A stretch of 43,080 nucleotides of DNA from Clostridia bacterium (GTDB taxonomy: Bacteria; Bacillota; Clostridia; Oscillospirales; CAG-272), in NCBI GenBank assembly GCA_017558715.1, contig JAFYTT010000374.1:1-43080 (forward strand). The letters are read 5' to 3'. This document shows positions 3,024-38,860 of this stretch, in pieces. The notes under the pieces were generated by a model. That model was not told the DNA's origin. It saw only the letters and a program-made list of their open reading frames with translations, and ran no database searches. The stretch's first letter is position 1. Every line of letters begins with the position of its first letter. The position numbers and the translations under genes are program-made.

Positions 3024-3038
3024 ATTTTCTGTATCCCC

Positions 3039-3074
3039 GGATCGTGTTCTTCACAGAGCACGATCCTCTTTTTT
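3039..3074 (+). terminator. Intrinsic terminator after cysS
   Basis: GGATCGTGTTCT-tcac-AGAGCACGATCC followed by TCTTTTTT. Confidence 0.8.
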
Positions 3075-3090
3075 GCCAATCACGAAAGAA

Positions 3091-3132
3091 TTGACAAATC
3101 CGTGCTTTTTGTGGTATAATAACAAAAAGCAC
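3091..3132 (+). promoter_or_regulatory. Consensus sigmaA promoter of the CotH pair with an inverted repeat around the -10 box
   Basis: TTGACA(3091)-18 bp-TATAAT(3115) with TG; GTGCTTTTTGT(3102-3112)/ACAAAAAGCAC(3122-3132) perfect 11-bp inverted repeat. Confidence 0.75.
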
Positions 3133-3165
3133 AATCCCGATCAAAGCACAGAGGAGGTGTTCCCG

Positions 3166-4716: not shown

Positions 4717-4767
4717 GCCTGCAGGCAATCGTCGTACCCCATGGAAAGAAGAAAGGAAACACCGATC

Positions 4768-20885: not shown

Positions 20886-20894
20886 GCCAAAGAA

Positions 20895-23354
20895 TTATTT
20901 CTTTCTGGTCTTGGTTGTCTTTGTGACGGGTGCTGTGATGGGTGTCATATGCCAGATGTTCTTTGCATATTCACTGATCGCACGGTCTGCCGCAAAGATA
21001 CCTGCGGACGCCGTGTTGACCAGCGACATCTTCGCCCACTTGTCTCGGTTGTTAAAATCAACCGTCATGCGGTCATGCGCACGGCAGTAGGACTCAAAGT
21101 CCGCCAGACACATATACGGGTCAGCGATACCGCGTCCGATGACAAGGTAATCGACGAAATCGCGGTAGGAGTTGCCGTTGAAGCCGAAGGTGAAGGAATC
21201 GACCGTTCTCTTAAGCTTGTCGTTGGCAACATAATAGGTAGCCGCGTTGTAACCGTGACGCCACAGATCCTCGACTTCCGGCGTGGTCAGACCAAACAGG
21301 TACATGTTGTCGTCCCCAACAGCCTCATGGATTTCGACATTCGCACCGTCCAGCGTACCGATGGTAACAGCACCGTTGATCATCAGCTTCATACAGCCGG
21401 TACCGGATGCTTCCTTACCTGCAAGTGAAATCTGCTCGGAAATATCTGCCGAGGGAATCAGCACTTCTGCCATGGAGACGTTGTAGTCTTCCATGAAAAC
21501 AACGCGCAGCTTTTCGCGGATACGAGGATCACGCTCGATTTCAGCCTGCAGATCGCAGATCATCTTGATGATGCGCTTTGCCATATCATAACCTGGTGCT
21601 GCCTTTGCACCGAAAATGAAGGTCTGGGGCGTGATATCGAGATTCGGATTTTCGCGCAGCTCGTTGTAAAGGCTCACAATGCGCAGGGCATTCAGCAGCT
21701 GGCGCTTGTATTCATGCAGACGCTTGACCTGCACGTCGAAAATGGAATCGGGGTTGAGCGCAATGCCGGTCTTGGATGCGACATAGTTGGAGAAGCGAAC
21801 CTTGTTCTCACGCTTGATCGCAAGGATCTGATCAAGAACCTTCTGATCGTCCTTGTATTCGAGCAGTCTCGACAGCGTTTCGGGCTGCTTTTTGTAATCG
21901 GTACCGATCAGGTTATCCAGCAGACCCGTCAGGCCGGGGTTGGAGTAGCACAGCCATCTGCGGTGTGCAATACCGTTGGTGACGTTGGTGAACTTGCCGG
22001 GCGTGTACTTGTAGTAGTCATGGAAGACGGTCTTTGTCAGAATATCGGAGTGGAGCTTCGATACACCGTTGACCGTGTGAGAACCGGCAACGCACATATT
22101 TGCCATACGTACAGAGCCGTAGCCGATGATCGCCATGCGGGAGATACGATCCCAGTCACCGGGATAGCACTTCCAGAGGTCTTCGCACAGACGGCGGTTG
22201 ATCTCACGGACGATGGTATGGATACGCGGCAGCTTGAGCGCAAACAGGTCTTCGTTCCATGTTTCAAGCGCTTCGGGCATGACGGTATGGTTGGTGTAGG
22301 AAACGGTACGGGTAACAACATCCCATGCCTGTTCCCAGTTGTAGCTATGGACATCCATCAGCTGACGCATCAGTTCCGGAATCACGAGTGCCGGGTGCGT
22401 ATCGTTAACGTGGATAGCAACCTTGTCTGCAAAATTCCACAGCGAGCCGTAACGGCGCAGATGGTCGGAAATGATCGACTGCAGAGATGCGGAAACGAGG
22501 AAATACTGCTGGGAAAGGCGGAGCAGCTTACCCTCGGTATGGTTGTCGGACGGATACAGAACCTTGGTCAGAATTTCCGCATTGGTGTTCTGCTCCATTG
22601 CCTGCAGATAAGCACCCTGCGAGAACAGGTTCATGTTGAACATCGAGGTGGTCTTTGCCTTCCACAGACGCAGAACGTTGACAGCCTCACAGTCGGCACC
22701 GGAAATCATGATATCATAAGGAACAGCCTGGATTTCTTCATAGTTGTCATGAACGATGTCACACTTGCCGTCCTTCCAGGTTTCCTTGATGTGACCGCCG
22801 AAACGGACAGTGCACGCCTTATCGGTTCTGGGAACGAGCACAACATCACCGCCGGGCAGCCAGTTGTCGGGCAGCTCAATCTGCTGACCGTCGACAAGCT
22901 TCTGCTTGAACAGACCGTATTCGTACAGCAGCGAAAAACCGGTTGCGGGATAGTTGAGCGTGGTAGCCGCGTCCATATAGCATGCGGCAAGGCGACCGAG
23001 ACCGCCGTTGCCAAGACCCGGATCGGGTTCACGTTCGTATACGGATTCGAGCGAAAAACCGAGCTCGGACAGAACATCGCGATAGATTTCTGTGAGACCA
23101 AGATTACCGAGGTTATTCTTCAGCGAACGGCCGATGAGGAATTCCATGCACATATAGTACAGGGTCTTGCCGGACTGACGCTTGACTTCTTCTTTATATT
23201 CAGAGCGCTTCTGGGACAGAATGTCCTTGACGCACATCATCACGGCGCGGTAAATCTGATCTTCATTGGCTTCTGCCATGGTAACGCCGAAATAGCGGGA
23301 AAGCTTGGTTGAAAGCGCTTCCCTAACGGATTCTTTGGTGAATTTCTGATTCAT
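20895..23354 (-). CDS. glgP: Glycogen/starch phosphorylase
   Basis: GLGNGGLGRLAAC, NDTHP, YTNHT, KRLHEYKRQ, EASGTG.MK; start at ATG 23354. Confidence 0.96.
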   Translation of the reverse strand: MNQKFTKESVREALSTKLSRYFGVTMAEANEDQIYRAVMMCVKDILSQKRSEYKEEVKRQSGKTLYYMCMEFLIGRSLKNNLGNLGLTEIYRDVLSELGFSLESVYEREPDPGLGNGGLGRLAACYMDAATTLNYPATGFSLLYEYGLFKQKLVDGQQIELPDNWLPGGDVVLVPRTDKACTVRFGGHIKETWKDGKCDIVHDNYEEIQAVPYDIMISGADCEAVNVLRLWKAKTTSMFNMNLFSQGAYLQAMEQNTNAEILTKVLYPSDNHTEGKLLRLSQQYFLVSASLQSIISDHLRRYGSLWNFADKVAIHVNDTHPALVIPELMRQLMDVHSYNWEQAWDVVTRTVSYTNHTVMPEALETWNEDLFALKLPRIHTIVREINRRLCEDLWKCYPGDWDRISRMAIIGYGSVRMANMCVAGSHTVNGVSKLHSDILTKTVFHDYYKYTPGKFTNVTNGIAHRRWLCYSNPGLTGLLDNLIGTDYKKQPETLSRLLEYKDDQKVLDQILAIKRENKVRFSNYVASKTGIALNPDSIFDVQVKRLHEYKRQLLNALRIVSLYNELRENPNLDITPQTFIFGAKAAPGYDMAKRIIKMICDLQAEIERDPRIREKLRVVFMEDYNVSMAEVLIPSADISEQISLAGKEASGTGCMKLMINGAVTIGTLDGANVEIHEAVGDDNMYLFGLTTPEVEDLWRHGYNAATYYVANDKLKRTVDSFTFGFNGNSYRDFVDYLVIGRGIADPYMCLADFESYCRAHDRMTVDFNNRDKWAKMSLVNTASAGIFAADRAISEYAKNIWHMTPITAPVTKTTKTRKK

Positions 23355-23393
23355 GGATTCTCTTCCTTTTATCTGGTAATTTCGTACCCTAAT

Positions 23394-23422
23394 ATTATAC
23401 CACAAATTCACGGTACGGTCAA
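23394..23422 (-). promoter_or_regulatory. sigmaA promoter of glgP-GH13
   Basis: TTGACC-17 bp-TATAAT with TG. Confidence 0.75.
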
Positions 23423-23531
23423 GATGGTAATCGCCCATTTTTACATGTAATTTTGGGGATTTTTGCTATTTGGAAGAACTGGGAGTTGTTTTATCTCACA
23501 AAAATAGATAGGATTTGGTGAATGACACAAG

Positions 23532-23566
23532 AAAAACAGCGGCACACCCCAAAAGAGCATGCCGCC
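23532..23566 (-). terminator. Intrinsic terminator after glgA
   Basis: GGCGGCATGCTC-loop-GGGTGTGCCGCT followed by GTTTTT. Confidence 0.6.
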
Positions 23567-23587
23567 GCATAAGATATTCAATTCAAA

Positions 23588-25018
23588 TTACAGTGCATCG
23601 TACATATCAAGATACTTCTTTGCGGATACCGACCAGGAGAAGTCGACCTTCATCGCGTTTGCACGCAGGGTTTCCCACTGCTTTGCATCCCCGTACAGAT
23701 CAACCGCGCGAATGATCGCATCCAGCATATCGAGCGCATCATAGTTGCAGAATGTGATACCGTTGCCCTCGCCTGTGGTCTGGTCGTAGGGATGAATGGT
23801 ATCGTAAAGACCGCCGACTTCACGGACAATCGGCACCGTGCCGTAACGGGAAGCGATCATCTGTGCAAGACCGCACGGCTCGCTCTTGGACGGCATTAAG
23901 AAGATATCCGCACCGGCATAAATCTGCTTGGAAACGTCCTTGTTGTACGCCAGCAGAATCGAAACCTTTTCGGGATAACGCTTCTGCAGACCCTCAAAGA
24001 AGTTTTCCAGATCCGCCTCACCCGTACCAAGCAGAACAAACTGCACATCACGGACAAGCAGACGCTCAATGGCATACTTGACCAGATCAAAGCCCTTGTG
24101 AGAAGCCAGACGGGAAACCATCGCAATGACCGGCGTGGACGGGGATTCGGGAAGACCGAAGACCTTCTGCAGCTCTGCCTTGTTTGCAGCCTTGCCTTCC
24201 TCCACGGTATCAACCGTGAAGTTCTGCTTGATGACAGGATCGGTTTCGGCGTTGTAATAATCAACGTCAATACCGTTGACGATACCCATGACCTTGCCCG
24301 AGTACATACGCAGAATGTGCTGCAGACCCGATGCAAAATAATCCATCTGGATTTCCTCGGCATAACGGGAAGAAACAGTAGACAGTCTGTCACAGCAGAC
24401 GATCGCGCCCTTGGTGAGATTGATCATGCCGTTGTATTCAACGATGGAATGTTCGTAATCGGAAAGTCCGAAGACATCACCGAGAATGGACATATCGTAA
24501 ATGCCCTGATAGTCGATGTTGTGGATGGTATAAACGGTCTTGATGCCGCGGTATTCCTGCATCCAGTTGTACTTGGTGCGCAGATAGATGATGGACAGCG
24601 CACTCTGCCAGTCGTGGGCATGGAGGACATCCGGGAAGAAACCGATCTTCGGCATCATTTCCATGACTGCCATGCAGAAGAATGCAAAGCGTTCGCCGTC
24701 ATCGAAGTTGCCGTACAGATTGCCGCGGGAGAAGTAATACTGGTTGTCAATGAAGTAATACGTAACATCATTCAGCTCATAGCTGTACAGACCGCAGTAC
24801 TGATTTCTCCAGGACAGCTGGACGTAGTATTCGGTGACCTTTTCCATCTTGTCGCGGTATTTTTCGGAAATGGACTGGTACAGAGGGAGCACGACACGGA
24901 TATCGAGGTCATCACCCTGATCGCGCTTGAGCGCTGCGGGCAGAGAACCGAGAACGTCCGCAAGACCGCCTGTGGATGCAAACGGCAGTGCTTCCGCACC
25001 GACAAATAATAATTTCAT
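23588..25018 (-). CDS. glgA: Glycogen synthase (GT5)
   Basis: TGGLADV, HAHDWQ, TIHN, GIVNGID, SRL..HKG, EPCGL. Confidence 0.95.
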   Translation of the reverse strand: MKLLFVGAEALPFASTGGLADVLGSLPAALKRDQGDDLDIRVVLPLYQSISEKYRDKMEKVTEYYVQLSWRNQYCGLYSYELNDVTYYFIDNQYYFSRGNLYGNFDDGERFAFFCMAVMEMMPKIGFFPDVLHAHDWQSALSIIYLRTKYNWMQEYRGIKTVYTIHNIDYQGIYDMSILGDVFGLSDYEHSIVEYNGMINLTKGAIVCCDRLSTVSSRYAEEIQMDYFASGLQHILRMYSGKVMGIVNGIDVDYYNAETDPVIKQNFTVDTVEEGKAANKAELQKVFGLPESPSTPVIAMVSRLASHKGFDLVKYAIERLLVRDVQFVLLGTGEADLENFFEGLQKRYPEKVSILLAYNKDVSKQIYAGADIFLMPSKSEPCGLAQMIASRYGTVPIVREVGGLYDTIHPYDQTTGEGNGITFCNYDALDMLDAIIRAVDLYGDAKQWETLRANAMKVDFSWSVSAKKYLDMYDAL

Positions 25019-25056
25019 AAGGGATTCTCCTTTCGGATCGGATTATCGGAGAGCAA

Positions 25057-26187
25057 TTACAGCATCTGGTTCTTACCGATGAAATACGGCTTGGACGGAT
25101 GACCGGACAGGACATTGCCGTCGCGGATGACGGTATTCTTATCGGAAATGACACAGTTCATAAAGACATTTTCGCCGACAACGGTATCCTGATACAGAAT
25201 ACAGTTCTTGACAACAGCACCGCGTCCGATCTTGACACCGCGGAACAGGATGCAGTTTTCAACGGTACCGTCGATGGTACAGCCGTCTGCAATCAGAGAG
25301 TTCTTGACGACAGAGGAATCGGTATAACGGGTGGGCGCAGAGTTGCGGACCTTGGTCAGAACAGGACGTCTGTCGATACCGAACAGTGCGGAGCGGAATG
25401 CGGTATTGGTAATCAGCTCCATGCTGGTTGCAAAGTAGTCTTCCAGCGAGGAAATGGTCGCAAATGCACCGTCGTAACGGTAAACGCGGTAAACACGCTC
25501 ATCCTTGTTGCGCATCATGATATCGCGGGTCAGGCTGGTAAAGCCGTGTGCGATGGATTCCTGAACAAAGCTCTGCAGATACTTGGTGTTGACAACGATG
25601 ATGTTCAGCGCAACATCGTGTTCACCTTCCGCATACTTGGGGTTCATCGCCATATCGACAATACGACCGTTCTCGTCTGCGTCAATGATGGTTGCGGTTT
25701 CGCTGATGGCACCGTTCAGTGTCATGCGCTTGGTCATCATCGTGATGTCGGCATTGTTTGCAATGTGATCACGGAGCAGGTCTTCGAGATCGATGTTGCA
25801 GATGCCGTCACAGTCTGCCATAATGACATAATCTTCCTTGATGTGGTTCAGGCTTGCCGCGATGCCCATCAGGGATTCCAGACGGGAGTGACCGCCGACC
25901 TGATAGTTCTGGCTTGCACGCATATTGGGCGGGAGGATCTTGATACCGCCGGAGCGTCTTGCCAGATCCCAGTCCTTACCGGAACCGATGTGATCCATCA
26001 GAGACTGGTAGTTGTACTGCGTGACAACGCGGATATCGGTGATACCGGAGTTGACCATATTGGACAGCGTAAAGTCGATCAGGCGGTATCTGCATCCGAA
26101 CGGAACAGAGCCGACGGTACGGCTGCGGGTCAGTTCGGGAATGTTTCTTTCATGGAGATTGGCAAAGATAATACCGATTGCGTTCAT
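25057..26187 (-). CDS. glgD: Glucose-1-phosphate adenylyltransferase, GlgD subunit
   Basis: [41 protein letters not shown]; overlaps the glgC stop. Confidence 0.93.
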
Positions 26188-27401
26188 GCGATATTACCTC
26201 CTTCCTTGAGTTGGGAAAGTTTGGCTTCGTTGACCATGTCTCCGGCAGCAATTGTCATGCCTGCGGGAACTGTCAGCTTGGTACCGATGACGCAGATCTT
26301 TTCTTCGTCATTCTTGGCACCGACGACCGCACCAGCGCTGATGACGGTATCCGCGTCAACGATGGAATATTCGACTCTGGCACCGGCTTCGATTCTGGTA
26401 CCGCTCATAATGACGGAATCACGGACAACCGCACCGGGAGCGACATAAACGCCGTCAAAAAGCACAGAGTTTTCAACACAGCCGTAAATTTCGCAGCCTT
26501 CGCTCATCATCGAGCCGTGAATCTTGGCATCCTCACCGATAAACTGCGGCGGGCGTGCGGAGGTACGGGAGAAGATTCTCCAGTTCTTGTCGTAAAGATC
26601 GAATTCGGGCTTTTCGCCGAGCAGATCCATATTAGCTTCCCACAGAGATGCAATCGTTCCGACGTCCTTCCAATAACCGGAGAAGGGATATGCATACATG
26701 GACTTGCCGTCACCCAGCATCTTCGGGATGATATTCTTACCGAAGTCCTTGGAGGAATTCGGGTCGTTTTCGTCGGCAATCAGATATTCTCGGAGCAGTT
26801 TTGCATTGAAGATGTAAATACCCATCGATGCCTTGGTGGACTTGGGCTGCTTGGGCTTTTCTTCAAACTCGAAGATCTTGCCGTTTTCGTCCGCATTCAT
26901 AATACCGAAACGGGAAGCCTCGGACAGCGGAACCTCCAGAACAGAAATCGTACAGTCGGCGTTCATCTTCTTATGATAATCGAGCATTGCCGCATAGTCC
27001 ATCTTATAGATGTGGTCACCGGAGAGGATGAGCACATAGTCGGGATCATAGCGGTCGATGAAGTTGAGGTTCTGGTAAATGGCGTTTGCCGTGCCGGAAT
27101 ACCAGTCAGCGCCGTTCTTGCCCTGGTACGGCGGAAGCACCATAACACCGCCGCGGCTGCGGTCAAGGTCCCACGGCTGACCGTTGCCGATGTACTCGTT
27201 GAGTACAAGCGGCTGATACTGCGTCAGAACACCAACGGTGTCGAGACCGGAATTGATGCAGTTGGAGAGCGGGAAGTCGATGATACGGTATTTACCGCCG
27301 AACTGGACAGCGGGTTTTGCCGTCGATTCTGTCAGTGTGTACAGTCTGCTGCCCTGTCCTCCCGCAAGCAGCATCACGACACATTCTTTCTTTTGGAACA
27401 T
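26184..27401 (-). CDS. glgC: Glucose-1-phosphate adenylyltransferase
   Basis: [54 protein letters not shown]; AAGGAGG RBS. Confidence 0.96.
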
Positions 27402-27488
27402 GATTACAATATTCCTCCTTCTATTTTTGTGTTCTGCCATGGGCACCATACACCAAAGCAAAACATACGGTACAATAATAATGTGGGA

Positions 27489-29552
27489 TCATGATTTGCG
27501 CTGGCGTTTGACCGGCGCAAAGATCACAGCAGACATTGCCGGCAGCGTCACACACAGACAGCGGTGCGTTTCGCTGTTGTCGGGTGCCATCACGGGTTCT
27601 GCGGTCAGTCTGCCTTCATTATGACAGTCCGAGCCGCCCCACGCCGCATCATCGGTTGTGAACAATTCCTCATAAACCGCAGGCGCATCCGCAGGCAGTC
27701 TCATGGTATATCCGTTCAGCGGACGTGCGGAAAAGTTGACCGCAATCAGAAGCGGCATTCCGGCTCTGTCATATCGGACATATGAAATCGTATTGGTATC
27801 GCGCTCCTCCGTACCCATCCAGCGGTAACCTGCCCAGGAGAAATCGTCCTCCCACAGCTCCCGCCGCTCCAGATACAGATGATTGAGCGCACGGGTAAAG
27901 CTCTGCATCTTTCTGTGTGCGTCATAATCGAGCATGAACCATTCCAGCTGATTTTCCCAATCCCATTCACGGAACGGTGCATATTCACAGCCCATAAAGG
28001 TCATCTTTTTGCCCGGCTGTGTGATCATATAAGCAAGGAACGCACGCATACAGGCGAATTTTTCCTCATATACGCCGAACATCTTGTCCAAGAGGGATTT
28101 TCTGCCGTGAACGACCGCATCGTGCGGAATCGGCAGAATATGGTTTTCGGAAAATGCATCCATCAAAGGATCGGTCAGACAGGCGTGTTTGTCTCCACGG
28201 CGGAGCGGATCGGTGCCGACATAATCGAGCATACCGTCCATCCATGCGGTATTCCATTTGAAATTGAAGCCGAGTGCGCCGATATCCACAGGTCCCGTCA
28301 CATGCTGCTGACCGGTCGATTCGCCGGCAATCATGAGTGCATCGGGAAATTCGGAAAAGAGCTTGGTATTCAGCTTACGGAAAAACGCCATTGCCGCCGC
28401 ATTGTATTCCGTACCCTCGCCGTTGTCAAAATACAGCATATCGGTGACATCACAGCAGCGCAGACCGTCGATATGATATTCCCGCAGCCAGAACATGGCA
28501 CCCGAGACAAGGAACGACTGTACCTCGGGACGTCCGACATCGAAACGGTCGGTACCGCCCATGTCATCCTCATCCCAGTTCTGATATTCATAGCAGAAGC
28601 TGCCGTCAAACCGATACAGACCGTGCTCGTCCCGAGGGAAGCGGGCAGGTACCCAGTCCAGAATCACACCGATTCCGGCAGTATGGCAGGCATCCACGAA
28701 ATATTTGAAATCCTCAGGTGTTCCGAAGCGGGATGTCGGTGCATAATAAGAACAGACACGGTAACCCCAGGAACGGTCATCGGGATGCTCGGTCACAGGA
28801 AGCAGTTCCACATGGGTATATCCCATTTCCTTTACATACGGAACGAGTACCTCCGCAATTTCTCTGTAATTGAGATATGCCGCAGGATTTTTGCGTGTGG
28901 TCATACCCTCGCGCGTACGGAATGAGCCGAGATGCACCTCGTAAATATTCATCGGCGCCGGGTAGAATGCGCGCATCGCTTTGGATGCTTTTTTCTTCTG
29001 CTCGGTCAGAAGGATGCTCCCTGCATTTTCGGAAGCTTCTTCCGCCGCTCTGCTTTTTGCCTGCGGGGAGGAAAAGATTCTGCGTCTGTGCGTACGCCAT
29101 CCTCTGTCATGCCATTCAAACTTCGGCGGGATATACAGAATGGACGCGGTATTGTGCAGACATTCCGAAAAGACACCGTACGGATCTGCTTTCAGATGGA
29201 CACCGTTGTCTCCTGTAATCCGATATTTATACCGCTGACCGACACGGATGATATCCTCTTCTTTTTTGCCTTTTTCAGGCAGCGGAACGATACATTCCCA
29301 GACACCGGCCTCCGTCACACGCGTCATCGGATATCCGTCGCCCCAGTCGTTAAAATCCCCAACCACTTCGATTTTCTGTGCGCGCGGTGCCCAGACGCGG
29401 AAGATCCAGCATCTGCCGGTCTTTCCGTCGGAATAATGCGCGCCGAGATAATCGTATGCATACGTCGTGGTTCCCTGATGGAAATAGTATGCGGCAAGAT
29501 CATCGGGGGTACTTGCGCGGGATGCGGGTGTTTGCGGTTTGCCTTGTGCCAT
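27489..29552 (-). CDS. glgB: 1,4-alpha-glucan branching enzyme homolog (catalytic residues substituted)
   Basis: FRVWAP, KADPY, NIYEVHLGS, MGYTHVELLP, SWGY, GIGVILDWVP, VVHG.KSL, PGKK..FMG; active-site motifs deviate (see findings). Confidence 0.85.
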   Translation of the reverse strand: MAQGKPQTPASRASTPDDLAAYYFHQGTTTYAYDYLGAHYSDGKTGRCWIFRVWAPRAQKIEVVGDFNDWGDGYPMTRVTEAGVWECIVPLPEKGKKEEDIIRVGQRYKYRITGDNGVHLKADPYGVFSECLHNTASILYIPPKFEWHDRGWRTHRRRIFSSPQAKSRAAEEASENAGSILLTEQKKKASKAMRAFYPAPMNIYEVHLGSFRTREGMTTRKNPAAYLNYREIAEVLVPYVKEMGYTHVELLPVTEHPDDRSWGYRVCSYYAPTSRFGTPEDFKYFVDACHTAGIGVILDWVPARFPRDEHGLYRFDGSFCYEYQNWDEDDMGGTDRFDVGRPEVQSFLVSGAMFWLREYHIDGLRCCDVTDMLYFDNGEGTEYNAAAMAFFRKLNTKLFSEFPDALMIAGESTGQQHVTGPVDIGALGFNFKWNTAWMDGMLDYVGTDPLRRGDKHACLTDPLMDAFSENHILPIPHDAVVHGRKSLLDKMFGVYEEKFACMRAFLAYMITQPGKKMTFMGCEYAPFREWDWENQLEWFMLDYDAHRKMQSFTRALNHLYLERRELWEDDFSWAGYRWMGTEERDTNTISYVRYDRAGMPLLIAVNFSARPLNGYTMRLPADAPAVYEELFTTDDAAWGGSDCHNEGRLTAEPVMAPDNSETHRCLCVTLPAMSAVIFAPVKRQRKS

Positions 29553-29775: not shown

Positions 29776-29811
29776 AAAAAAACGCCCGCCCCGTGAAGGA
29801 CAGACGTTTTT
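29776..29811 (-). terminator. Intrinsic terminator of the GRE operon
   Basis: AAAACGTCTGTCC-ttcacg-GGGCGGGCGTTTTTTT. Confidence 0.75.
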
Positions 29812-29849
29812 CAGAAAAAGAACAGGATCCTGTATCGAAGAATACACCG

Positions 29850-32471
29850 TCAGCGGATGCCCGAAACCACAGGACAAAGTGTCCCGCCGGATAAAAGTCC
29901 GCCGATCTCGGCATAACCCTCAAGCAGATTGGCATACGAATTGTAAACGGTAATATCCAGACAATGCATACCGGCACACAGCTCCAGCACAAAATCATAC
30001 GGCTGTCGAATGCATTTTCCAACCTCGGTACCGTCAACAGCTGCCGTAACGGTATCACGAACCTCACCCAGCGACAGCAGATATCTGCCGTCCTGCGGAA
30101 TCGCAACCGTCATGTGATAGGTCACGCCGCCGGAATAGAACGGCTGACCTTGTTCGGACCATGATTCATCGGTTTTCAGCGCGGTATGACGTGCAGAAAG
30201 TGTAACCTCGGCACGGTCGGGAATCCACATACACAGATTATAGGTATGGCGTGCTGTCTTATGGAGAACATGTTCACCTGCCACAGAAACATCAAATTCA
30301 CCTGACAGGAACAAAAGACTGTCGGCGGTCAGCGGTGCTGTTTTCTCAATCATCAGAGTATACTTCCCCGGCTGCAGCACGGGCAGTGCAAACGCGCTGT
30401 ACGCATCGTCAAAAATCTGTACCGACTGTGCGGACAGTCTGATACCGTCCAGCGTCACCGCCGTAATTGTTTCAAGACAGAACGTCGGAATCATCACAGA
30501 AACGTCAGCCATCGCATCTGTTACAGTAAACGGAAATTCCAGCGACGGAACATCCTCATCCTTGGTCACAGCCGTACCATCGCAGACAAAATATTCCAGC
30601 GACACAGCATTCGGCGCATGGAAGGTAACGGGACATGTTTGCGGCAAAGATGCCACAGCATCGCCGAGGACAAAACGCGCAGGGATGTTGTCATAATGCG
30701 CCGATACATAACGGATGTCACCGGGATACAGCAGCAGAGATTCTTTTCGTCCGTACGCATACAGGGTGCCGCGAATCGGTTCGTTTTGTTCGATGTTGGC
30801 AATAAAAACAAATTCTTCGCCGTCGATGATGCGGCGCGCAAAATGCGGTGTTCCCTCACCGTCCCAGCGTACCGTACAGTCGGACAGCAAGTCGGGAATA
30901 CGGTCAAGCGCATCCGCACCGATGACCGTGATGCCGTTTGCCTCGATTGCGGCGCGTTCTTCCTCGGACAGTACGATTCCGGCTTCAATGGCAATGCGGA
31001 ATCCCAAATCTTCGTTTGCAAGGCGAACACGGTCACAGACGGTAAAGCCCCAGACCTCGCGGTTGAGTCGGTTAAATACATCAAAATACGGCGCGCCGTC
31101 AAAACGGTTCCGCCAGAGATCCTCGGTCGGATCGATCAGTGCAATGGGATACAAGGGCTTGCCCGATGCCATCATCGCACTCATTTCCGCCAGATGGTCG
31201 TTGAGTTCTCTCACTGCATGGGAAAGCATGGATTTCGGGGAGAAATCCGGCGGTGCAAAATACTTTGCTTCTCCAAAGAAACGGTGATGGTAGGCATGCG
31301 TCACAAGGAACGTAATGCCCTGCATGATCTGAAATGCGGCAATCCGTGCAAGCGTTCCAGGCTCAACCCCGAAGTTGGTTGCGGCAAACATTTCGCACAT
31401 CGTTTCCCGTTTGCCAAGCATAAATGCCGTCGCCGCCGCCTGCTTTGCGCGCATATCATGCGATACATCGGTGAAGTCCGTCATTTTCAGCGTCGTCTGC
31501 GGCAATCCCCAAACGACATTGGGAAGATAAAAACATTCCCCGCGCATATGCTTTCCGCCGTCCAGCGCATACAGCTCCTGGTCGGTTCCCGGATAATCAA
31601 AGTGCGAACCGACATCGGAAAAACGTCCTTCCGTAAATGCGGAACTGCGCGGCGCATCGTTATGAAGAAACGGTGAAGTATCTCCGGCATGACCGGTGAT
31701 CAGAAGACCGTGTTCATGTGCCCAGCGTTCCCCTGTTTCAAACCAACTCTGATAAAGATGACCCGCATGCTCCCAATAATCCTGTGCCTGCGGCAGATCC
31801 GGATATTGCAGAAGGTCCTTCAGATACGGTGTGATATCATAGCCGTATTTCTTTTCAAAGGAATTTGCAAAGTCATCCGACCATGGGAAATAATTGCGTT
31901 TGTAGTTTTCAAAGCCGTACATCGCGCCGGCATCGACACGGCGGTTGTCGGTATCGGAGAAAAAGCCGACGATCGGATCACCGAAATAGTCCCCGACCTC
32001 GCGCAGATACGCCTCATAGACCAGCTCACGGAACAGTTCGGCAGAACGCGGATGCTCAAACGCAGGGAATCCCCATTCCACCTTTTCCGCGATAACCTGT
32101 CCGTCCTTGAGGATCAGATGCTGTCCGTACAGCGTGGGATCAATTGCACGAACCTTTCCCGCAACACTTCCGGGCGGGAAATCAAAGCCGTTGTTGATCC
32201 ACATTTCAAGAGACAAATCCCGGCAAGCCTTTGCCGCAGCACGCACCATGTCAAACCACGCATCCGTCAGATAGTTCTCCGACGTAAATCCGCGCGGCGG
32301 CTTGTTGAACAGAACAATCCCGCCAAAGCCTTCTTCCTTCAAAGCCGACAGAGCTTCATGCATCGCCGCCTCCGACAGTGCCTCGGGATCGGTTGTTGTA
32401 ATGAAATAAAACGGTTTTGGCCGATGTGCGAACACATCAGCCTCACCGATCGGATATCGATTCATACGCAT
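29850..32471 (-). CDS. GH106/alpha-L-rhamnosidase-like large glycosidase homolog
   Basis: PKPFYF, GFGG, YL...WF, YEAY, DYPG.D, CEMF, C-terminal SWSEQGQPFYSG...LDITVYN beta-sandwich; no signal peptide; start 32471 or 32465. Confidence 0.6.
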   Translation of the reverse strand: MRMNRYPIGEADVFAHRPKPFYFITTTDPEALSEAAMHEALSALKEEGFGGIVLFNKPPRGFTSENYLTDAWFDMVRAAAKACRDLSLEMWINNGFDFPPGSVAGKVRAIDPTLYGQHLILKDGQVIAEKVEWGFPAFEHPRSAELFRELVYEAYLREVGDYFGDPIVGFFSDTDNRRVDAGAMYGFENYKRNYFPWSDDFANSFEKKYGYDITPYLKDLLQYPDLPQAQDYWEHAGHLYQSWFETGERWAHEHGLLITGHAGDTSPFLHNDAPRSSAFTEGRFSDVGSHFDYPGTDQELYALDGGKHMRGECFYLPNVVWGLPQTTLKMTDFTDVSHDMRAKQAAATAFMLGKRETMCEMFAATNFGVEPGTLARIAAFQIMQGITFLVTHAYHHRFFGEAKYFAPPDFSPKSMLSHAVRELNDHLAEMSAMMASGKPLYPIALIDPTEDLWRNRFDGAPYFDVFNRLNREVWGFTVCDRVRLANEDLGFRIAIEAGIVLSEEERAAIEANGITVIGADALDRIPDLLSDCTVRWDGEGTPHFARRIIDGEEFVFIANIEQNEPIRGTLYAYGRKESLLLYPGDIRYVSAHYDNIPARFVLGDAVASLPQTCPVTFHAPNAVSLEYFVCDGTAVTKDEDVPSLEFPFTVTDAMADVSVMIPTFCLETITAVTLDGIRLSAQSVQIFDDAYSAFALPVLQPGKYTLMIEKTAPLTADSLLFLSGEFDVSVAGEHVLHKTARHTYNLCMWIPDRAEVTLSARHTALKTDESWSEQGQPFYSGGVTYHMTVAIPQDGRYLLSLGEVRDTVTAAVDGTEVGKCIRQPYDFVLELCAGMHCLDITVYNSYANLLEGYAEIGGLLSGGTLCPVVSGIR

Positions 32472-32481
32472 CAAACCTGCA

Positions 32482-33969
32482 TCAATAGTCGCTCGACATA
32501 TAGAAGTCCAGCGTTTCCTGCATTGCCTTCTCACAAGATTTTTTCTTAGAATCCCAGACCGTCGAGAAAGACTTACCGCTGGTTGCCATAACATCCAGCT
32601 GCGACTTGATGGAACCCCAGTTGAAGACGAAGCCAAGGTCATAACGCTTGGTGGAGAAGATGATATCGAGCATATCGCCGGATTCGTTGTCACGCGCCAT
32701 CTTGGTGTAGAGGTTGAGGTCGTAATACGCCTTTGTGACGGTATCGCGGGATTCGTATGCCAGAGCTTCGAGCAGATGGCAGGTCATATCAAGCTTCGCA
32801 ACATTGGTCGTCGGGACGCAGATACCGGGAGCCACGTGCGTTGCAATCAGATGGTAGTAGTCCTCCTGGTTTTCGTCATACAGCGGATACGGCAGGATAC
32901 CGAAGTCGTGCTCCATGTTGCGGTAATAAACGATATCGTAAATGGAACCGGGACGGAACAGATTGCGGTTTTCCATGAAGACCTTGTCAAGCGTCGTCCA
33001 GGTTTCGGAGCACTTGGATGCCCACAGCATATTATCGGTATCGTTGAAGTATTCAACCAGATACTCGCAAACATCAAAGGTACGCTGAGATTCCACGGAG
33101 AAGTACGGAACGCCTTCATCATCCAGCGTAACGAGGTTGTTGCCGCAGGTGAAGTAAAACAGGAATGCCATACCGCCGTCGGAGAGGATGCCGAACTGGT
33201 CGTTCTCGTCGCGGACACCGTCACCGTTGAGGTCACGCGCGACCTGCTTGCCGAGGGCCTGCATCTGATCCATCGTCCACTTCTTATCGCGTGCCATCTG
33301 GTATACGTCCGGAACATCAAAGTCGTTTGCAACCTTCTTGTTGAAATAGACGCAGTAGTTCAGTTCTTCGTCGTACACAGAGATGTCACCGGTCATGACA
33401 TAGATCTTATTGAACATTGCAAGGTCACGCTGGATCGCCTGATCCCACCACGGTGCATCCATCTTGATGGACGGCAGGTCATACCAGTTCATGAACATGC
33501 CTTCCATTGCCATGGACATGGCATTGTTGATGTACAGCTCCATGACATCAAAGTCGTCGGAGCCTGTGGTAATCGAGTTGCGGGCAGTCGTCGCAGGAGC
33601 CTTGTCGTTGGTGACTTCAATGGTACAGTTATAGCGTTCTTCAATGAGCATATTGCGCGCATGAATCGCATCCGCGATCAGATCACCCGCAGATGCTTCG
33701 TCATAGTAGAAGTCATACTGATGGATACAGTCAACGCCGAGCTCATAGCCGAGGATGCGCAGCTTCTCACCGCCGAAATCTGCCTCGGGCAGATCGAGTG
33801 CGGGACGGTCATCGGTTACGGCTTCTGTGACAATCGCGGCAGTGTCCTCACCGCCGACAGCTGCGGTGGTTTCAGCAGGCTGTGTACCGCCGTCGCCGCC
33901 GCAGGATGCAGCAGTCCCCATGACGGTGCAGAGCAGTAAAAATGCGGGAAGTAATCTCTTGATAGTCAT
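32482..33969 (-). CDS. Extracellular solute-binding lipoprotein (ABC family 1, sugar-type)
   Basis: Lipobox AAS-C, T/A-rich linker, PWWD, YFNK, WTMD, DLNGDG, FGILPYP, LEALA; GGAGG RBS. Confidence 0.85.
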   Translation of the reverse strand: MTIKRLLPAFLLLCTVMGTAASCGGDGGTQPAETTAAVGGEDTAAIVTEAVTDDRPALDLPEADFGGEKLRILGYELGVDCIHQYDFYYDEASAGDLIADAIHARNMLIEERYNCTIEVTNDKAPATTARNSITTGSDDFDVMELYINNAMSMAMEGMFMNWYDLPSIKMDAPWWDQAIQRDLAMFNKIYVMTGDISVYDEELNYCVYFNKKVANDFDVPDVYQMARDKKWTMDQMQALGKQVARDLNGDGVRDENDQFGILSDGGMAFLFYFTCGNNLVTLDDEGVPYFSVESQRTFDVCEYLVEYFNDTDNMLWASKCSETWTTLDKVFMENRNLFRPGSIYDIVYYRNMEHDFGILPYPLYDENQEDYYHLIATHVAPGICVPTTNVAKLDMTCHLLEALAYESRDTVTKAYYDLNLYTKMARDNESGDMLDIIFSTKRYDLGFVFNWGSIKSQLDVMATSGKSFSTVWDSKKKSCEKAMQETLDFYMSSDY

Positions 33970-34008
33970 TTTCTAATCCTCCGTATATCACGTATTATTT
34001 TTTCTGAA

Positions 34009-36159
34009 TCAGTAATGCTCGGTACGCGCAAGAATGTCATCCTGCACAGAACGGTCGAGCTTGGTATAGTACGCCGAGAAGCCGGAAACGCGGACAACCA
34101 GAGATTCGTAATCCCCTGGATGCGCCTGTGCATCACGCAGCATATCCTTGGAAACGCAGTTGATCTGCAGCTCCTGTCCGCCCATCAAGAAATACGAGCG
34201 GATGACGGCACCGAGCTTGGCACGCTTTTCGGCATTGGCGAACATATCGGGCGTGTACTTCTGGTTGACAACGGTACCGCAGGCAACGCGGGTGTAGTCA
34301 GGCTTGCACAGCGACAGTGCCGATGCCGTGGGACCGGAGCGATCCATGCCGCGCATCGGGGATGCCGCATCAGAGACCGGCATACCGGCACCGCGTCCGT
34401 CGGGTGTTGCACCGACCTCGCGCCCTGCACCGATGTTCTGCGTGTTGGAAGCAATCGCAATATAATATCTGCCGCCGTCGGGTGTTCTGTAGGAGTCGAA
34501 CAGGTCTGCCTGCGCCTCGACAAACCAAATGGCGTACTTGTCGGCAATGTCGTCGTTGTTGCCGTACTTGGGTGCGGCAATCATCTGCTTCTGCAGTTCC
34601 TCATATCCTGCAAAATTCGCCGCAAGTGCATCACGCAGTTCACCGAGTGTGAGCACCTTGTCGCGGTAGACCAGCGTTTCGATCGCCGCAAGGGAATCCG
34701 CGACCGTGGCAATGCCCATACCGCAGGCACCGTGTGCCGTCGGATACTTTGCGCCGCCGCGGTTGATATCCTTACCGTTTGCAATACAGTCATCGCAGAA
34801 GCAGGATAAGAACGGCGACTGATGGTTGATCGTATCCGCAACCGTATTGGCGCGGTTAAACCAGTCCACATAATTTTTTGCACCCACACGCAGCTGCTCC
34901 ATGAACGCATCCATAAAGTCATCCATCGTCGCAAACGAATCGGGTTCTCCCGTTTCGATGCCGCGCTTCACACCGTCCAGCAGAGAACAGCCGTTGTTGA
35001 GCGCGTATTCCAGATACACAGGCGTGTTGAAGCGACCGTCAGACCACGGCGGCTGTTTGCCCTGGATAAAGTTCTCGATACAGCCGACCATACAGTAGTC
35101 GCGGCAGTCCTCAAGAGAATATCCCATTCGCTGCAGTGCCGGAATGTTGACGTCGTCATTCATCAGTGCAGGATATCCAAGACCCGTACCGATGACCTCA
35201 AGACAGGCATCGAGAAACTCCTTCGGCGTATCCTTGTGAATTCTTGCGGACAGATTCGGACCGGGAATAAAGCAGGCACGAACTGCGCGGAGAATACAGT
35301 AGGACAGCGCATTGGTCGCGTCGGTTCCGTCCTCGGGTTTGACACCGCCGATGGCAATGTTGGAGACATCATCACCGCCGCCAAGCGTTCTGCGTTCGCC
35401 GATCTTGATGAAAATGGATGCAAAATCGTCCGTAACCGATTCCTCGGTGACAATGCCGGAGGCAAGATCACGTTCATAAAACGGATAGAGGTACTGATCG
35501 AGCCGTCCGAACGCCATGGCATATCTGCCCTCATAGGCAAATGCGATATAGGTAAACCAGACAAGCTGCAGCGCATCGGCAAACGACTGCGGTGCCTCTG
35601 TTGTGATGCGACGGCATCTTGCCGCAATTTCCGCAAAACGAAGCTTGTCATCGCCCTCCGCTGCATCTGCCATGCGATCCGCCTCGTCTGCATAACCGAG
35701 AATCATCCCGGCAAACCCTTCCATGGCAATTTTTGTACTGCGCAGAAATGCGGTCTTCTCCGCATCGTCGGCATAACGGATAAGGGATGCGTCGATGTCT
35801 TCCAGCGTTCCGGGAATACCGCGATTCAGAAAATGTGAATAATTTGCCGCATAATGGTCAGAATTGGTATGGAAGCCGCGTTCCGGATACTGTGCACAGA
35901 TCTGTCCTGCCGCGGATGCCGCTTCCTCGGAAACATCTGCAAGCATACCGCGCAGAGAACCCGCGAAGCGATCGTTCTGATACAATACCTTTCTATGGGA
36001 AGTAAACAGCGAATGAATGGCATACGCACGGGCGATGACGTTTTCCTCGTCGGCATGCTGTGCATACCCCTGCGCCCGATACACAGCGGCGGCATACCGT
36101 CCCGATACCGGCATTTGTACTTCTGCCTTCAGTGCTGTAAGATCAAACTGCATTTGCAT
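34009..36159 (-). CDS. Glycyl radical enzyme (PFL2/PflD-like superfamily), substrate unknown
   Basis: FGRLDQYL, single-Cys loop MVGCIE, APKYGN, ATPDGR, C-terminal LVVRVSGFSAY glycyl motif. Confidence 0.9.
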   Translation of the reverse strand: MQMQFDLTALKAEVQMPVSGRYAAAVYRAQGYAQHADEENVIARAYAIHSLFTSHRKVLYQNDRFAGSLRGMLADVSEEAASAAGQICAQYPERGFHTNSDHYAANYSHFLNRGIPGTLEDIDASLIRYADDAEKTAFLRSTKIAMEGFAGMILGYADEADRMADAAEGDDKLRFAEIAARCRRITTEAPQSFADALQLVWFTYIAFAYEGRYAMAFGRLDQYLYPFYERDLASGIVTEESVTDDFASIFIKIGERRTLGGGDDVSNIAIGGVKPEDGTDATNALSYCILRAVRACFIPGPNLSARIHKDTPKEFLDACLEVIGTGLGYPALMNDDVNIPALQRMGYSLEDCRDYCMVGCIENFIQGKQPPWSDGRFNTPVYLEYALNNGCSLLDGVKRGIETGEPDSFATMDDFMDAFMEQLRVGAKNYVDWFNRANTVADTINHQSPFLSCFCDDCIANGKDINRGGAKYPTAHGACGMGIATVADSLAAIETLVYRDKVLTLGELRDALAANFAGYEELQKQMIAAPKYGNNDDIADKYAIWFVEAQADLFDSYRTPDGGRYYIAIASNTQNIGAGREVGATPDGRGAGMPVSDAASPMRGMDRSGPTASALSLCKPDYTRVACGTVVNQKYTPDMFANAEKRAKLGAVIRSYFLMGGQELQINCVSKDMLRDAQAHPGDYESLVVRVSGFSAYYTKLDRSVQDDILARTEHY

Positions 36160-36203
36160 GATACCCCTCCTTTATCAGAGAACATCCTATAGTTAATAAA
36201 AGT

Positions 36204-36232
36204 AGTATATCATATTCCGCGAAACTTGTCCA
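36204..36232 (-). promoter_or_regulatory. sigmaA-type promoter of the GRE operon
   Basis: TGGACA-17 bp-TATACT with TG. Confidence 0.65.
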
Positions 36233-36346: not shown

Positions 36347-38860
36347 ATGTCAGAAACCAAGCTGTCCAAAACCGTGCTCCCCATTCTGCTTGCGGGAGGA
36401 GAAGGAACCCGTCTGCGACCGATCACCGCCGCTCTGCCCAAGCCCCTGATCCCCGTCGACGGCATCCCCGCCATCTGTCGGATTCTCGACACTCTCTCCG
36501 CACACGGTGTCAAGCGCGCTGTCATCACAGTCCGATATCGCGCCGACGATATCATCGACCGTCTGGGTGAGGAATACGCCGGCATCCGTCTATACTACGC
36601 AAACGAAGCAGATGCCCCGCGCGGAACAGCCGGAGGCGTACGGGATGCGTGGGATCTGTATGCCGATGCCGATGACACCGATGCACTCATCATCAGCGGA
36701 GATGCGGTATTCACCTGCGATCTTGCCGCGTTTGCCGCCTATCACAAAGCAAAAGATGCCGATGCATCGCTTTTGTGTGTTTCCGTTTCCGATCCGGGCG
36801 CGTTCGGCATTGTCAATTCCGACGACGACGGTAAAATCACAGCGTTCACGGAAAAACCGTGTGCGGCGGAAACGCTGTCCGATACCGTCAACACGGGTAT
36901 TTACTGTCTGAGCCGCACCTTTCTCGAAACCATTCCCAAGAACGGTGCGCCGGATTTCGGGCAGGATGTATTTCCGTCTGCGCTGCGGGCGGGACGTTCT
37001 CTGTATGCCTTTGAAAGCGCCGATTATTGGTGTGATATCGGGTCGTTTTCCTCCTATCTTGCCTGCTCGCTTGCCGTCAGTGCCGGAAAAATCCCGAACA
37101 TGATCACGCCGCGCACACATCCGCAACTCCCGCCGCATATCTCGGACTGCTCGGTCGGGCGGGACTGTTTTATTCCGTCGACATCGTCTGTGCGCGGCAG
37201 TATTCTGTTCGATCGTGTAATTCTCGGCGCCGGGGCATCGGTATCCGGCTCAATTCTCTGTGAAGATGTCCGCATTGGGGACGGAACCGTGGTAGAACCG
37301 GGATGCGTCATCGGTCACGGCTGTCATATCGGTGATCGACTGCATCTGCCGCGCGGAACACGTCTGGAACCGGGAAACATTCTGCTCCGCGACCCGCAGT
37401 CACCGCATAGCACCCTCCCCGATAACTATGCGGTACGCGATGCGTTTGACGGGGGCGCACTGCTGTCCCCATATCTGTCCGACATCGGATATGCCCTATC
37501 CCGCTCTTCACAGCCGGAGCCGGAAACTGCCGTCGCCTTTGCCCGTGCCCTTGCCGCCTATGCCGCAAACCGCCGCTGTTCCCTCTTTCTCTGCCGTGCC
37601 GAGGACACGCCTTCTCTGCACAGTCTGCTCGGGCTGATCACAGAAACACTTGCATGCATGACAGCGATTCCCGCTGCGATCTTCTGCGCCGATGATGACA
37701 TTCTCCCGCTGTCCGCCGCGCGGATGCCCCTCCTGCCACTGCCGGATCAGTCCGCCAAAACACCGCTTTTGCGTATCGTTCTTCTGCGCCGCGGAAATAT
37801 TCCCTGTGCCGCCATCTTTGATGCGTACGGACTGTATCCGACACGCAAGGAGGAACGGATACTGGATACCTGCTTCTCTGATGCCTTGTCAGCACCGTAT
37901 CATTCACATCTTCCGGCTCCCCATTCCGTCACAATCGCGACACAGGAAATCTGTCGGATTCGCACAGAGCATCTGATCACCGCTTATCTTACACGATATG
38001 CCATCGGGACACTGCAAACCATCGACGGAACACCGTTTTCCTTTTCCTGCGGAGGAACGCCTGCCGAGCGGCTTTTATCCCGACTTCTTTGCGCCATGGG
38101 CGGGGAGGAATCCGTCTCCGCACCGATTCATTTTTCCGTGCGGGAACCGCGGGAAGACTGCGGAGATATCCTGTGTCCGCTGTCCGTCACCGATCTCGGA
38201 CAGATCAGTATGCGCGGACAGCCTGTCGGATATTCCCATTGGGAACTTCTTGCCCGGCTGACCGTCCGATACCGCGATGCACATCCGACAGCCTGTTTTC
38301 CCACACCGAGAACCCCTGACCCCTCCCACGATCGTCAGCCGCTGTCCGTCCCCGTCTGTGCCCCGCTGGATCTTGCCGCCGAATACCGTTATTCCCATGC
38401 ACCTGCCCTTTCGGAGCATGTGAAGGATGACAATGATGCGCATCTCGCCCGTCGGTATGCGGCAATGGAGGCCGAAGACGCCGTTCTTCTGGCACGCGAT
38501 ATCGCCCTGATGTCGGTGTCTGACTTGCAAGCCGCCATCCGATCGGAGGACAACGTATGCCATCCGCTCTGTCGGTATCATGGGTTTGCGGTATCCGCAT
38601 CGGATCCGTCCCATCCCCTGACGCTGACGGCGAATCTGTCCCGATTGACAAGAGGTGACCCTTCCGTGCGTTTCCGGCCTGCGATTGAGGGAGTTGTTCA
38701 TCAGAGCGATCGGGGTTCGGTGCGCATTGTCGCCACAAGAGACCGCAATTTCCGTATCATTGCCGATGCCCATTCAACAGAAGCGGCGGAAGAACTGTTC
38801 CGTTTTGCCAAAGACCGCCTTCTGTGTACAATTCACTCCGCCTCCGCACCAAAGGCATAA
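36347..38860 (+). CDS. Sugar-phosphate nucleotidyltransferase (mannose-1-P guanylyltransferase-like) + LbH + degenerate phosphomannomutase-like C-terminus
   Basis: LAGGEGTRLRPIT..PKPL, GTAGG, ISGD, FTEKP, NTGIY, DFG.D, YWCDIG; hexapeptide repeats; C-terminal EGV...RIIADAHS.EAAEEL resembles PGM/PMM domain IV. Confidence 0.8.
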   Translation: MSETKLSKTVLPILLAGGEGTRLRPITAALPKPLIPVDGIPAICRILDTLSAHGVKRAVITVRYRADDIIDRLGEEYAGIRLYYANEADAPRGTAGGVRDAWDLYADADDTDALIISGDAVFTCDLAAFAAYHKAKDADASLLCVSVSDPGAFGIVNSDDDGKITAFTEKPCAAETLSDTVNTGIYCLSRTFLETIPKNGAPDFGQDVFPSALRAGRSLYAFESADYWCDIGSFSSYLACSLAVSAGKIPNMITPRTHPQLPPHISDCSVGRDCFIPSTSSVRGSILFDRVILGAGASVSGSILCEDVRIGDGTVVEPGCVIGHGCHIGDRLHLPRGTRLEPGNILLRDPQSPHSTLPDNYAVRDAFDGGALLSPYLSDIGYALSRSSQPEPETAVAFARALAAYAANRRCSLFLCRAEDTPSLHSLLGLITETLACMTAIPAAIFCADDDILPLSAARMPLLPLPDQSAKTPLLRIVLLRRGNIPCAAIFDAYGLYPTRKEERILDTCFSDALSAPYHSHLPAPHSVTIATQEICRIRTEHLITAYLTRYAIGTLQTIDGTPFSFSCGGTPAERLLSRLLCAMGGEESVSAPIHFSVREPREDCGDILCPLSVTDLGQISMRGQPVGYSHWELLARLTVRYRDAHPTACFPTPRTPDPSHDRQPLSVPVCAPLDLAAEYRYSHAPALSEHVKDDNDAHLARRYAAMEAEDAVLLARDIALMSVSDLQAAIRSEDNVCHPLCRYHGFAVSASDPSHPLTLTANLSRLTRGDPSVRFRPAIEGVVHQSDRGSVRIVATRDRNFRIIADAHSTEAAEELFRFAKDRLLCTIHSASAPKA

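Follow-up and report, generated by a model that had tools for sequence, protein, structure and literature searches.

Glycyl radical enzymes (GREs) carry out difficult anaerobic chemistry, and several GREs of the gut make metabolites that affect the host. The described enzymes closest to the one reported here are the glycerol dehydratase DhaB1 of Clostridium butyricum (structures 1r8w and 1r9d) and propanediol dehydratase (5i2a), both of which have a PFL-like barrel, a glycine radical domain and a GCxE loop. According to sections 5.6 and 5.7 of the 2026 review PMC13450708, a CXE motif defines the characterised GRE eliminases and isomerases, and its section 7 states that whole GRE clades remain without an assigned function. 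Here we analyse an oxygen-sensitive radical enzyme, a GRE of 716 residues, that has the same barrel, radical domain and loop and that is encoded by the first gene of a three-gene locus in a 43,080-nucleotide stretch of DNA from an uncultured gut Clostridia bacterium. This stretch, called the window throughout, is contig C368 of a metagenome-assembled genome (G000) of 3.47 Mb that is 83% complete in 428 contigs. The reading that we tentatively favour, with somewhat less than an even chance of being right as a whole, is that the locus is a functional co-transcribed module in which a compact CXE-type GRE acts on a hydroxylated substrate larger than glycerol and is activated in trans by an activase encoded on contig C346, and in which the second and third genes, coding for a MalE-like lipoprotein and a GH106-like protein, are lineage-specific additions.

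The GRE matches PF02901, the PFL-like barrel domain (E = 2.8e-137), and PF01228, the C-terminal glycine radical domain (E = 2.1e-27). It also has the loop glycine of an RVxG[FY] motif, found as G693 in RVSGFSAY at residues 690-697, and a loop cysteine, found as C360 in VGCIENF at residues 358-364, features that place it in the PFL-like division of the GRE superfamily. These motifs confirm the single-cysteine GCIE loop and the intact RVSGF sequence that an earlier reading of this DNA, made from its letters and hereafter called the sequence-only reading, had described for a 716-residue enzyme. With E362 two residues beyond C360, the protein carries the CXE motif of the 1,2-eliminase and isomerase classes. 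The short N-terminus is real since the open frame has only 720 codons. When scored against NCBIfam models, the GRE did not reach the equivalog cut-off of any of the characterised classes tested. Specifically, its scores relative to the cut-offs were 404.6/1100 for HypD, 383.6/1050 for CutC, 362.7/1000 (sulfopropanediol dehydratase) and 350.3/1000 for HpsG/HpfG, 334.8/1109 for PRK09983, 305.6/1100 and 254.8/1150 for the indoleacetate and hydroxyphenylacetate (HPA) decarboxylases, and 125.1/994 for PFL. The score for TIGR01774, which covers the general PFL2/glycerol dehydratase subfamily, was higher at 466.7 and still fell below the cut-off of 678.2. Glycerol dehydratase 1r8w scores best among the solved structures (E = 1.9e-106), with 9rco (an unnamed GRE), propanediol dehydratase (E = 9.3e-104), CutC, HypD, YbiW and PflD close behind. 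These comparisons support the view, also taken in the sequence-only reading, that the GRE is an uncharacterised CXE-type enzyme that lies outside every characterised class tested.

Alignment of the GRE with 1r8w shows which parts of the active site are shared. Residues H164, C433, E435 and D447 of the glycerol dehydratase are kept as H102, C360, E362 and D374, whereas Y, A, V and A take the places of H281, S282, Y339 and Y640, respectively. In glycerol dehydratase, the diol pocket comprises H164, H281, S282, Y339, D447 and Y640. With four of these changed and the TIGR01774 cut-off missed, the GRE does not qualify as a B12-independent glycerol or propanediol dehydratase. The alignment suggests that its pocket has been rebuilt and is probably larger than that of glycerol dehydratase.

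The GRE is a member of a large and uncharacterised clade of compact enzymes that is, as judged from sequence, sharply set apart from other GREs. A protein search returned 1655 matches, and all 120 clusters listed have lengths of 702-733 residues and at least 54% identity to the query, with nearly all of them coming from uncultured Clostridia. Consistent with a separate block, 19 out of 121 sampled family genomes contain a match with an identity of at least 49%, and the next matches are at 38% or lower. Among the 42 related loci that we fetched from species-representative genomes, a single one (L056) comes from a cultured species, Fumia xinanensis NSJ-33. A quick tree resolved four subclades and grouped the window GRE with those of loci L021-L025 with full support. 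Alignment of 33 full-length clade sequences that share 52-95% identity gave the common motifs TNxDH, YAMAxGR, NIxIGG, GYPALMND, VGCIENF, WSDGR, SDAASP and RVSGFSA. Motifs at the positions that line the glycerol dehydratase pocket are practically invariant in these 33 sequences and the clade is therefore probably isofunctional. Thus, the enzyme is not the isolated novelty that the sequence-only reading took it for; it belongs to a large clade in which the conserved partners elsewhere are an AraC regulator, an activase and a dehydrogenase of the Zn alcohol dehydrogenase type. No description of this clade was found in the GRE literature searched, including that from 2024 onward, in passages of PMC13450708 or in a term search of PMC11528403, and the supplements of similarity-network studies might list it.

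The conserved residues suggest how the GRE could work if it follows the mechanism of its class. G693 would store the radical and C360 would form a thiyl radical that takes a hydrogen from a carbinol carbon of the substrate. E362 would then deprotonate the hydroxyl at that carbon, and a substituent at the beta position (a hydroxyl, a nitrogen or a ring oxygen) would leave or migrate. H102 and D374 keep the positions that H164 and D447 have in glycerol dehydratase. Because the pocket appears to be rebuilt and is probably larger, the enzyme would be expected to act on a hydroxylated substrate larger than glycerol, with a carbohydrate derivative being most likely.

A GRE of this kind needs an activase. 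Pfam scans of the 33 open reading frames (ORFs) in the window turned up none of the radical-SAM type, and they likewise gave no ABC permease, sugar kinase or microcompartment shell protein, as the sequence-only reading had stated. The window's sole kinase-like matches are two tandem CotH kinase-like proteins at 3016-4716 and 4741-6321 (+ strand), each with an InlB B-repeat-like domain. We made an inventory of GREs and activases in the whole genome. There are 12 glycine-radical-domain matches, whose loops identify one as PFL, one as NrdD and ten as PFL-like. Nine of the ten PFL-like enzymes, the window GRE included, have an alignable cysteine loop in which the cysteine is followed two residues on by a glutamate, or by an aspartate in the enzyme on contig C296; the tenth, on C276, is a C-terminal fragment only. 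The nine PFL-like GREs other than that of the window, which have about 660-780 residues, are on contigs C203, C230, C276, C103, C288, C296, C79, C95 and C12. Several of them have unusual glycine loops (RLWGVSA, RVWGWSG, RISGWSA and RICGYSA), and related genomes contain between 6 and 19 glycine-radical matches each.

Activases scoring above the TIGR02494 cut-off are encoded on four contigs (C346, C95, C203 and C296), and the genome additionally has PflA-like and NrdG-like genes. Those on C95, C203 and C296 adjoin a GRE, which leaves the C346 activase as the only one that has no GRE neighbour. The pair on C203 consists of a GRE of the glycerol dehydratase/propanediol dehydratase type, with the motifs GCVEP, GHSISPGR and WHDAAFFN, and its own activase. 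Most of the other GREs have no adjacent activase. For example, the GREs on C288, C103, C12 and the window contig C368 have at least 2 kb of flanking DNA on both sides and no activase match on the contig, and those on C79, C230 and C276 are nearer to contig ends. The orphan status of the window GRE, which the sequence-only reading had stressed, is thus not special. Of the 35 clade loci that have a full-length GRE, at least 20 likewise have no adjacent activase.

From this inventory, activation of the window GRE in trans, which the sequence-only reading had predicted, is well supported, and the C346 activase is the best candidate for the activator because it has no GRE beside it and because this state is conserved in relatives. 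Specifically, standalone orthologues of the C346 activase with 65-91% identity are present in G001, G003, G004 and G005. The activase-less GRE is found in these four relatives and in a fifth, G002, whose top activase match was not resolved to an ORF. In a tree of 30 activases, the sister of the C346 group (support 100/99) is the activase found at locus L039, which is encoded upstream of a compact GRE at a distance of two genes. The G005 genome has five PFL-like GREs and three activases, with two of the activases paired and the third being of the C346 type. Across the 121 family genomes, identity to the C346-type activase declines smoothly (67%, then 53% or less), so that no orthologue threshold can be drawn. 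We infer that the C346 activase would most likely activate the window GRE and would probably serve several activase-less GREs, although cross-reactivity of activases is called rare in section 2.5 of PMC13450708.

The three genes themselves form a real operon (Table 1). The arrangement given in the sequence-only reading, with one promoter, three genes spaced 39 and 10 nt apart and a single terminator, holds up by coordinates, by a consensus scan and by RNA folding. The promoter-like site ranks first of 12 matches in the region, where shuffled sequences give 6.2 +/- 2.4, and an AAGGAGG sequence is located 7 nt upstream of the GRE start codon. The third gene starts at an ATG located 10 nt past the lipoprotein stop codon, and a longer frame that starts with GTG overlaps the lipoprotein gene. 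At the end of the operon, a 16-bp hairpin has a predicted folding energy of -20.9 kcal/mol (z = -4.78), with none of 200 shuffles folding equally well. A consensus terminator scan did not list this hairpin, and the six other matches that it gave are no more than the 7.2 expected by chance. All three genes are under purifying selection, with ratios of nonsynonymous to synonymous substitution rates (dN/dS), measured relative to up to five orthologues, of 0.05-0.13 for the GRE, 0.08-0.11 for the lipoprotein and 0.09-0.10 for the GH106-like protein. Contigs from four metatranscriptomic runs of two animal-gut studies cover parts of all three genes with 90-99% likeness, although each run has gaps in several places along the stretch, and one of these contigs (32336-32685) bridges the junction of the lipoprotein and GH106-like genes.

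Table 1. Genes and signals of the three-gene GRE operon, with positions in the window.
Feature	Coordinates	Strand	Basis
Glycyl radical enzyme, compact CXE-type, 716 aa; H102, C360, E362, D374, G693	34009-36159	-	PF02901 and PF01228, motifs
MalE-like (SBP_bac_1-related) lipoprotein, 495 aa; lipobox AASC at residues 20-23	32482-33969	-	Pfam matches of homologues, fold
GH106-like glycoside hydrolase, divergent, 873 aa; no evident signal peptide	29850-32471	-	PF17132, fold
Sigma-70-like promoter, TGGACA-17-TATACT with TG extension	36204-36232	-	10/12 matches, top match of the region
Intrinsic terminator, hairpin then U run	29777-29812	-	RNA folding

Several observations weigh against the favoured reading. 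In the activase tree, the other 14 activases found beside compact GREs form a clade that is separate from the C346 type, and activases that are 49-53% identical to C346 adjoin non-compact GREs elsewhere, for example in G007. Because of the latter, the pairing of activase and GRE cannot be read from similarity. A dedicated activase may also simply have remained unassembled, given the state of the genome assembly. Regarding the substrate, the larger pocket is deduced from a pairwise alignment to one structure rather than from a pocket model. The Zn alcohol dehydrogenase that is found at 23 of 43 loci (see below) is absent here, so that the use or the substrate of the enzyme may differ in the window's subclade despite the identical motifs. 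Finally, the RNA-library contigs are compatible with carry-over of DNA and do not prove a single transcript.

The second gene codes for a protein that has a lipobox and a long low-complexity linker. The lipoprotein itself has no Pfam match even at an E value of 10; its homologues at 33-43% identity carry PF01547/PF13416 (SBP_bac_1/8). An AlphaFold model (pLDDT 88) predicts the two-lobe fold of periplasmic binding proteins, and its top Foldseek matches are the oligosaccharide-binding proteins of ABC systems (best E = 5e-16), with the top 50 being mostly MalE-like at a TM score of up to 0.70 on the target. Homologues and predicted fold support the identification of this lipoprotein as a MalE-like homologue of sugar-binding proteins, in agreement with the sequence-only reading. 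The same reading's description of the third protein as GH106-like also found support. This protein matches PF17132 (GH106) with 33.6 bits relative to a cut-off of 29, with no single stretch passing alone, and 30 of its 40 homologues match PF17132, the best at 2.6e-52. Its sole sequence match in the PDB, weak and collinear, is the GH106 rhamnosidase BT_0986, and a structure model (pLDDT 93.7) gave 6q2f and 5mqm as the top Foldseek matches (E of about 1e-22). Alignment of 40 homologues shows D173, D297 and E360 as invariant residues, and by inspection the N-terminal sequence has no signal peptide. The GH106-like protein may have an activity other than that of a rhamnosidase.

The likeliest of the alternatives, and the pathway that the sequence-only reading had proposed, is that the three products act in sequence on one compound. 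The lipoprotein would capture a glycoside that is imported by a shared ABC permease, the GH106-like protein would free a sugar or deoxysugar such as L-rhamnose, and the GRE would degrade this sugar or its direct product. The tight gene spacing with one promoter and one terminator is in favour of this pathway, as are the folds of an oligosaccharide-binding protein and a GH106-like hydrolase and the absence of a signal peptide from the latter. Part of the gene linkage also held when relatives were compared. Specifically, a lipoprotein gene directly follows the GRE gene in all six subclade members having downstream DNA, and this adjacency persists down to 71% GRE identity. In contrast, all three genes occur together only in the window, L021 and L023, so that the GH106-like gene is present at three of the five informative subclade loci. 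A GH31 gene is found downstream in L021, L022 and L025 and takes the place of the GH106-like gene in the last two, and the L024 contig ends too early to show the genes past the lipoprotein. The GH31 proteins score 161 with the NCBIfam alpha-xylosidase model relative to a cut-off of 606 and so give no hint of a substrate. The tight adjacency of GRE and lipoprotein genes in this subclade may represent a single inherited event.

Against such a pathway stands the abundance of the lipoprotein family. The genome has at least 120 full-length lipoprotein paralogues, which amounts to one per ~29 kb, and their neighbours are highly diverse. Matches to the PF00528 permease number 15 on 9 contigs genome-wide, with none on the window's contig, and only one of the 120 paralogues is located within 5 kb of a permease match. 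In 17 of the 42 related loci, an SBP-family (solute-binding protein) gene is found no more than 8 kb from the GRE, which is about what chance would give at that density, assuming that the related genomes are similarly rich in the family. These counts give little support to the lipoprotein as a specific pathway partner. In addition, the same pocket motifs are present in clade members from quite different contexts. We consider this pathway unlikely, and the link from a glycoside to radical chemistry is weak. Since the clade as a whole does not keep the second and third genes as partners of its GRE, they are of little help in deducing what the enzyme acts on. In the reading that we favour, the MalE-like oligosaccharide-binding lipoprotein and a cytoplasmic GH106-like glycosidase would be a lineage-specific addition in a setting of glycan utilisation.

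We counted partners across the clade by tblastn over the window and the 42 related loci (n = 43). Most frequent near the compact GRE is a Zn alcohol dehydrogenase (23 of the 43 loci), with lower counts for an AraC regulator (18 loci), a TIGR02494-type activase (15 loci) and a GDSL esterase (5 loci). The window's subclade, to which L021-L025 and a truncated locus, L034, also belong, has none of these four partners nearby. In a Pfam tally, 125 neighbour ORFs from the 42 loci, from which ORFs below 150 aa, already annotated clusters and two very long ORFs were excluded, revealed no further recurrent family, with the top counts being 2-4. An orthologue of the Zn alcohol dehydrogenase exists in G005, a basal member, where it is located away from the compact GRE (locus L079 on contig C13, 7828-8943) and is 59% identical to that of L042. 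It sits in a run with two proteins that have no Pfam match, near NagB-like and GH2 genes. In the window's genome the best match to this dehydrogenase is only 27% identical, and the subclade members other than G005 give 27-29%. In L030 (10815-12764) and L033 (10770-12764), which belong to one subclade, the Zn alcohol dehydrogenase forms a fusion with an AAC(3)-like N-acetyltransferase domain and follows a compact GRE and an activase, an arrangement that may hint at an amino-bearing substrate.

These partners lend some weight to a second alternative, that the window's neighbours are irrelevant and that the clade's substrate for dehydration is a small diol, polyol or amino alcohol from fermentation, with the Zn alcohol dehydrogenase reducing the carbonyl product as in glycerol and propanediol pathways. 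Not only is the dehydrogenase encoded after the GRE in over half of the loci, the closest solved relatives of the GRE are glycerol and diol dehydratases, and the equivalents of H164, E435 and D447 are retained. However, the four changes in the diol pocket argue otherwise, and the genome already has a dehydratase-type GRE with its own activase on C203. The other genes of the clade loci also point elsewhere, as these loci are rich in AraC regulators, GDSL and SASA esterases and SBP genes and include a ROK kinase, with no microcompartment genes seen. We regard a small-diol dehydratase as improbable.

A bolder reading is that the C346 activase is a shared "master" activase for several activase-less GREs, four at minimum and seven at most in this genome, and that the window GRE acts directly on a free, unphosphorylated substrate of hexose size, be it a sugar, a deoxy-sugar or an amino sugar, which glycosidases such as the GH106-like protein set free in the cytoplasm. 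We put this combination forward as speculation that has only a small chance of being correct. If true, a shared activase would run counter to the prevailing picture of one activase per GRE, and the compact GRE would be without precedent among GREs in using a free sugar.

A ring-opening isomerase that resembles YbiW or PflD and acts on an unphosphorylated anhydro- or deoxy-sugar is a third and quite doubtful alternative. Isomerases share the CXE motif, as section 5.7 of PMC13450708 describes, and YbiW (8id7, 323 bits) and PflD (8id0, 314 bits) score near the 360 bits of the eliminases over the whole sequence. The setting is also carbohydrate-related, with GH31 and glycogen genes located nearby in relatives. 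Nevertheless, the score with NF007437, the PRK09983 model, is 334.8 relative to a cut-off of 1109, and there is no conserved aldolase or kinase partner. Finally, that the GRE is a decaying or inactive relic for want of an activase, as the absence of one from the window might suggest, is scarcely credible in view of the low dN/dS, the fully intact catalytic motifs, the presence of the gene in RNA libraries, the activases that exist in the genome and an activase-less state that is conserved across six genomes.

Genes that flank the operon are also of note. Directly downstream is a glycogen cluster at 18948-29552 (- strand) that codes for a GlgB-like protein, two GlgC/D-like proteins, GlgA, glycogen phosphorylase and an alpha-amylase-family protein. 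This cluster has its own promoter-like site, TTGCAA-17-TATAAT at 29655-29627, ahead of glgB. On the other side, at 36347-38860 (+ strand), is a gene for an 837-aa protein whose first third corresponds to a sugar-1-phosphate nucleotidyltransferase that includes a hexapeptide domain and whose last 497 residues have no Pfam match. This gene is divergent to the GRE gene in the window, L021, L022, L024, L025 and L034.

The compact clade is of broader interest for several reasons. It is large and, among the matches listed and the loci fetched, confined to uncultured gut Clostridia but for one cultured species, and it combines the catalytic residues of dehydratases with a pocket that appears rebuilt. 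Furthermore, the lineage has many more GREs than activases, so that the sharing of activases is directly testable.

Comparison with known systems places these features in perspective. Relative to DhaB1, the window GRE has an N-terminus that is shorter by about 62 residues, with its residue 96 aligning with residue 158, and the window locus has neither an adjacent activase nor a 1,3-propanediol dehydrogenase, in contrast to the setting of DhaB1. CutC, HypD, HpsG/HpfG and IslA, together with the isomerases YbiW, PflD and HplG, match the window GRE with 267-344 bits and share its CXE motif, and the same radical logic would be expected from the sections of PMC13450708 that treat these classes. The equivalog scores of the window GRE with the models for such enzymes are roughly one third to two fifths of the cut-offs. 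The third gene product has its top fold matches in the GH106 alpha-L-rhamnosidases BT_0986 (5mqm) and Novosphingobium RHA-P (6q2f), from which it differs in being ~170-230 residues shorter and only 11-12% identical, with TM scores of only 0.44-0.53. The lipoprotein shares the fold of MalE-type binding proteins such as Lmo0181 (5f7v) and Thermotoga maritima MalE (2ghb), and unlike the importers to which these belong it has no adjacent permease or ATPase gene and is one of a large set of paralogues that are almost never located beside permeases. Other members of the compact clade, for example that of Fumia xinanensis NSJ-33 (with a GDSL esterase), are encoded in cassettes in which genes for an AraC regulator, a GRE, an activase, in some cases a GDSL esterase, and a Zn alcohol dehydrogenase are grouped together. 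In the subclade of the window and L021-L025, the local activase, alcohol dehydrogenase and AraC genes of such cassettes are missing and lipoprotein and glycosidase genes are present instead. The GRE of these cassettes is nonetheless 52-57% identical to the window GRE, is of equal length and has identical pocket and glycine-loop motifs. F. xinanensis, as the cultured carrier, provides a practical route to the substrate of the GRE.

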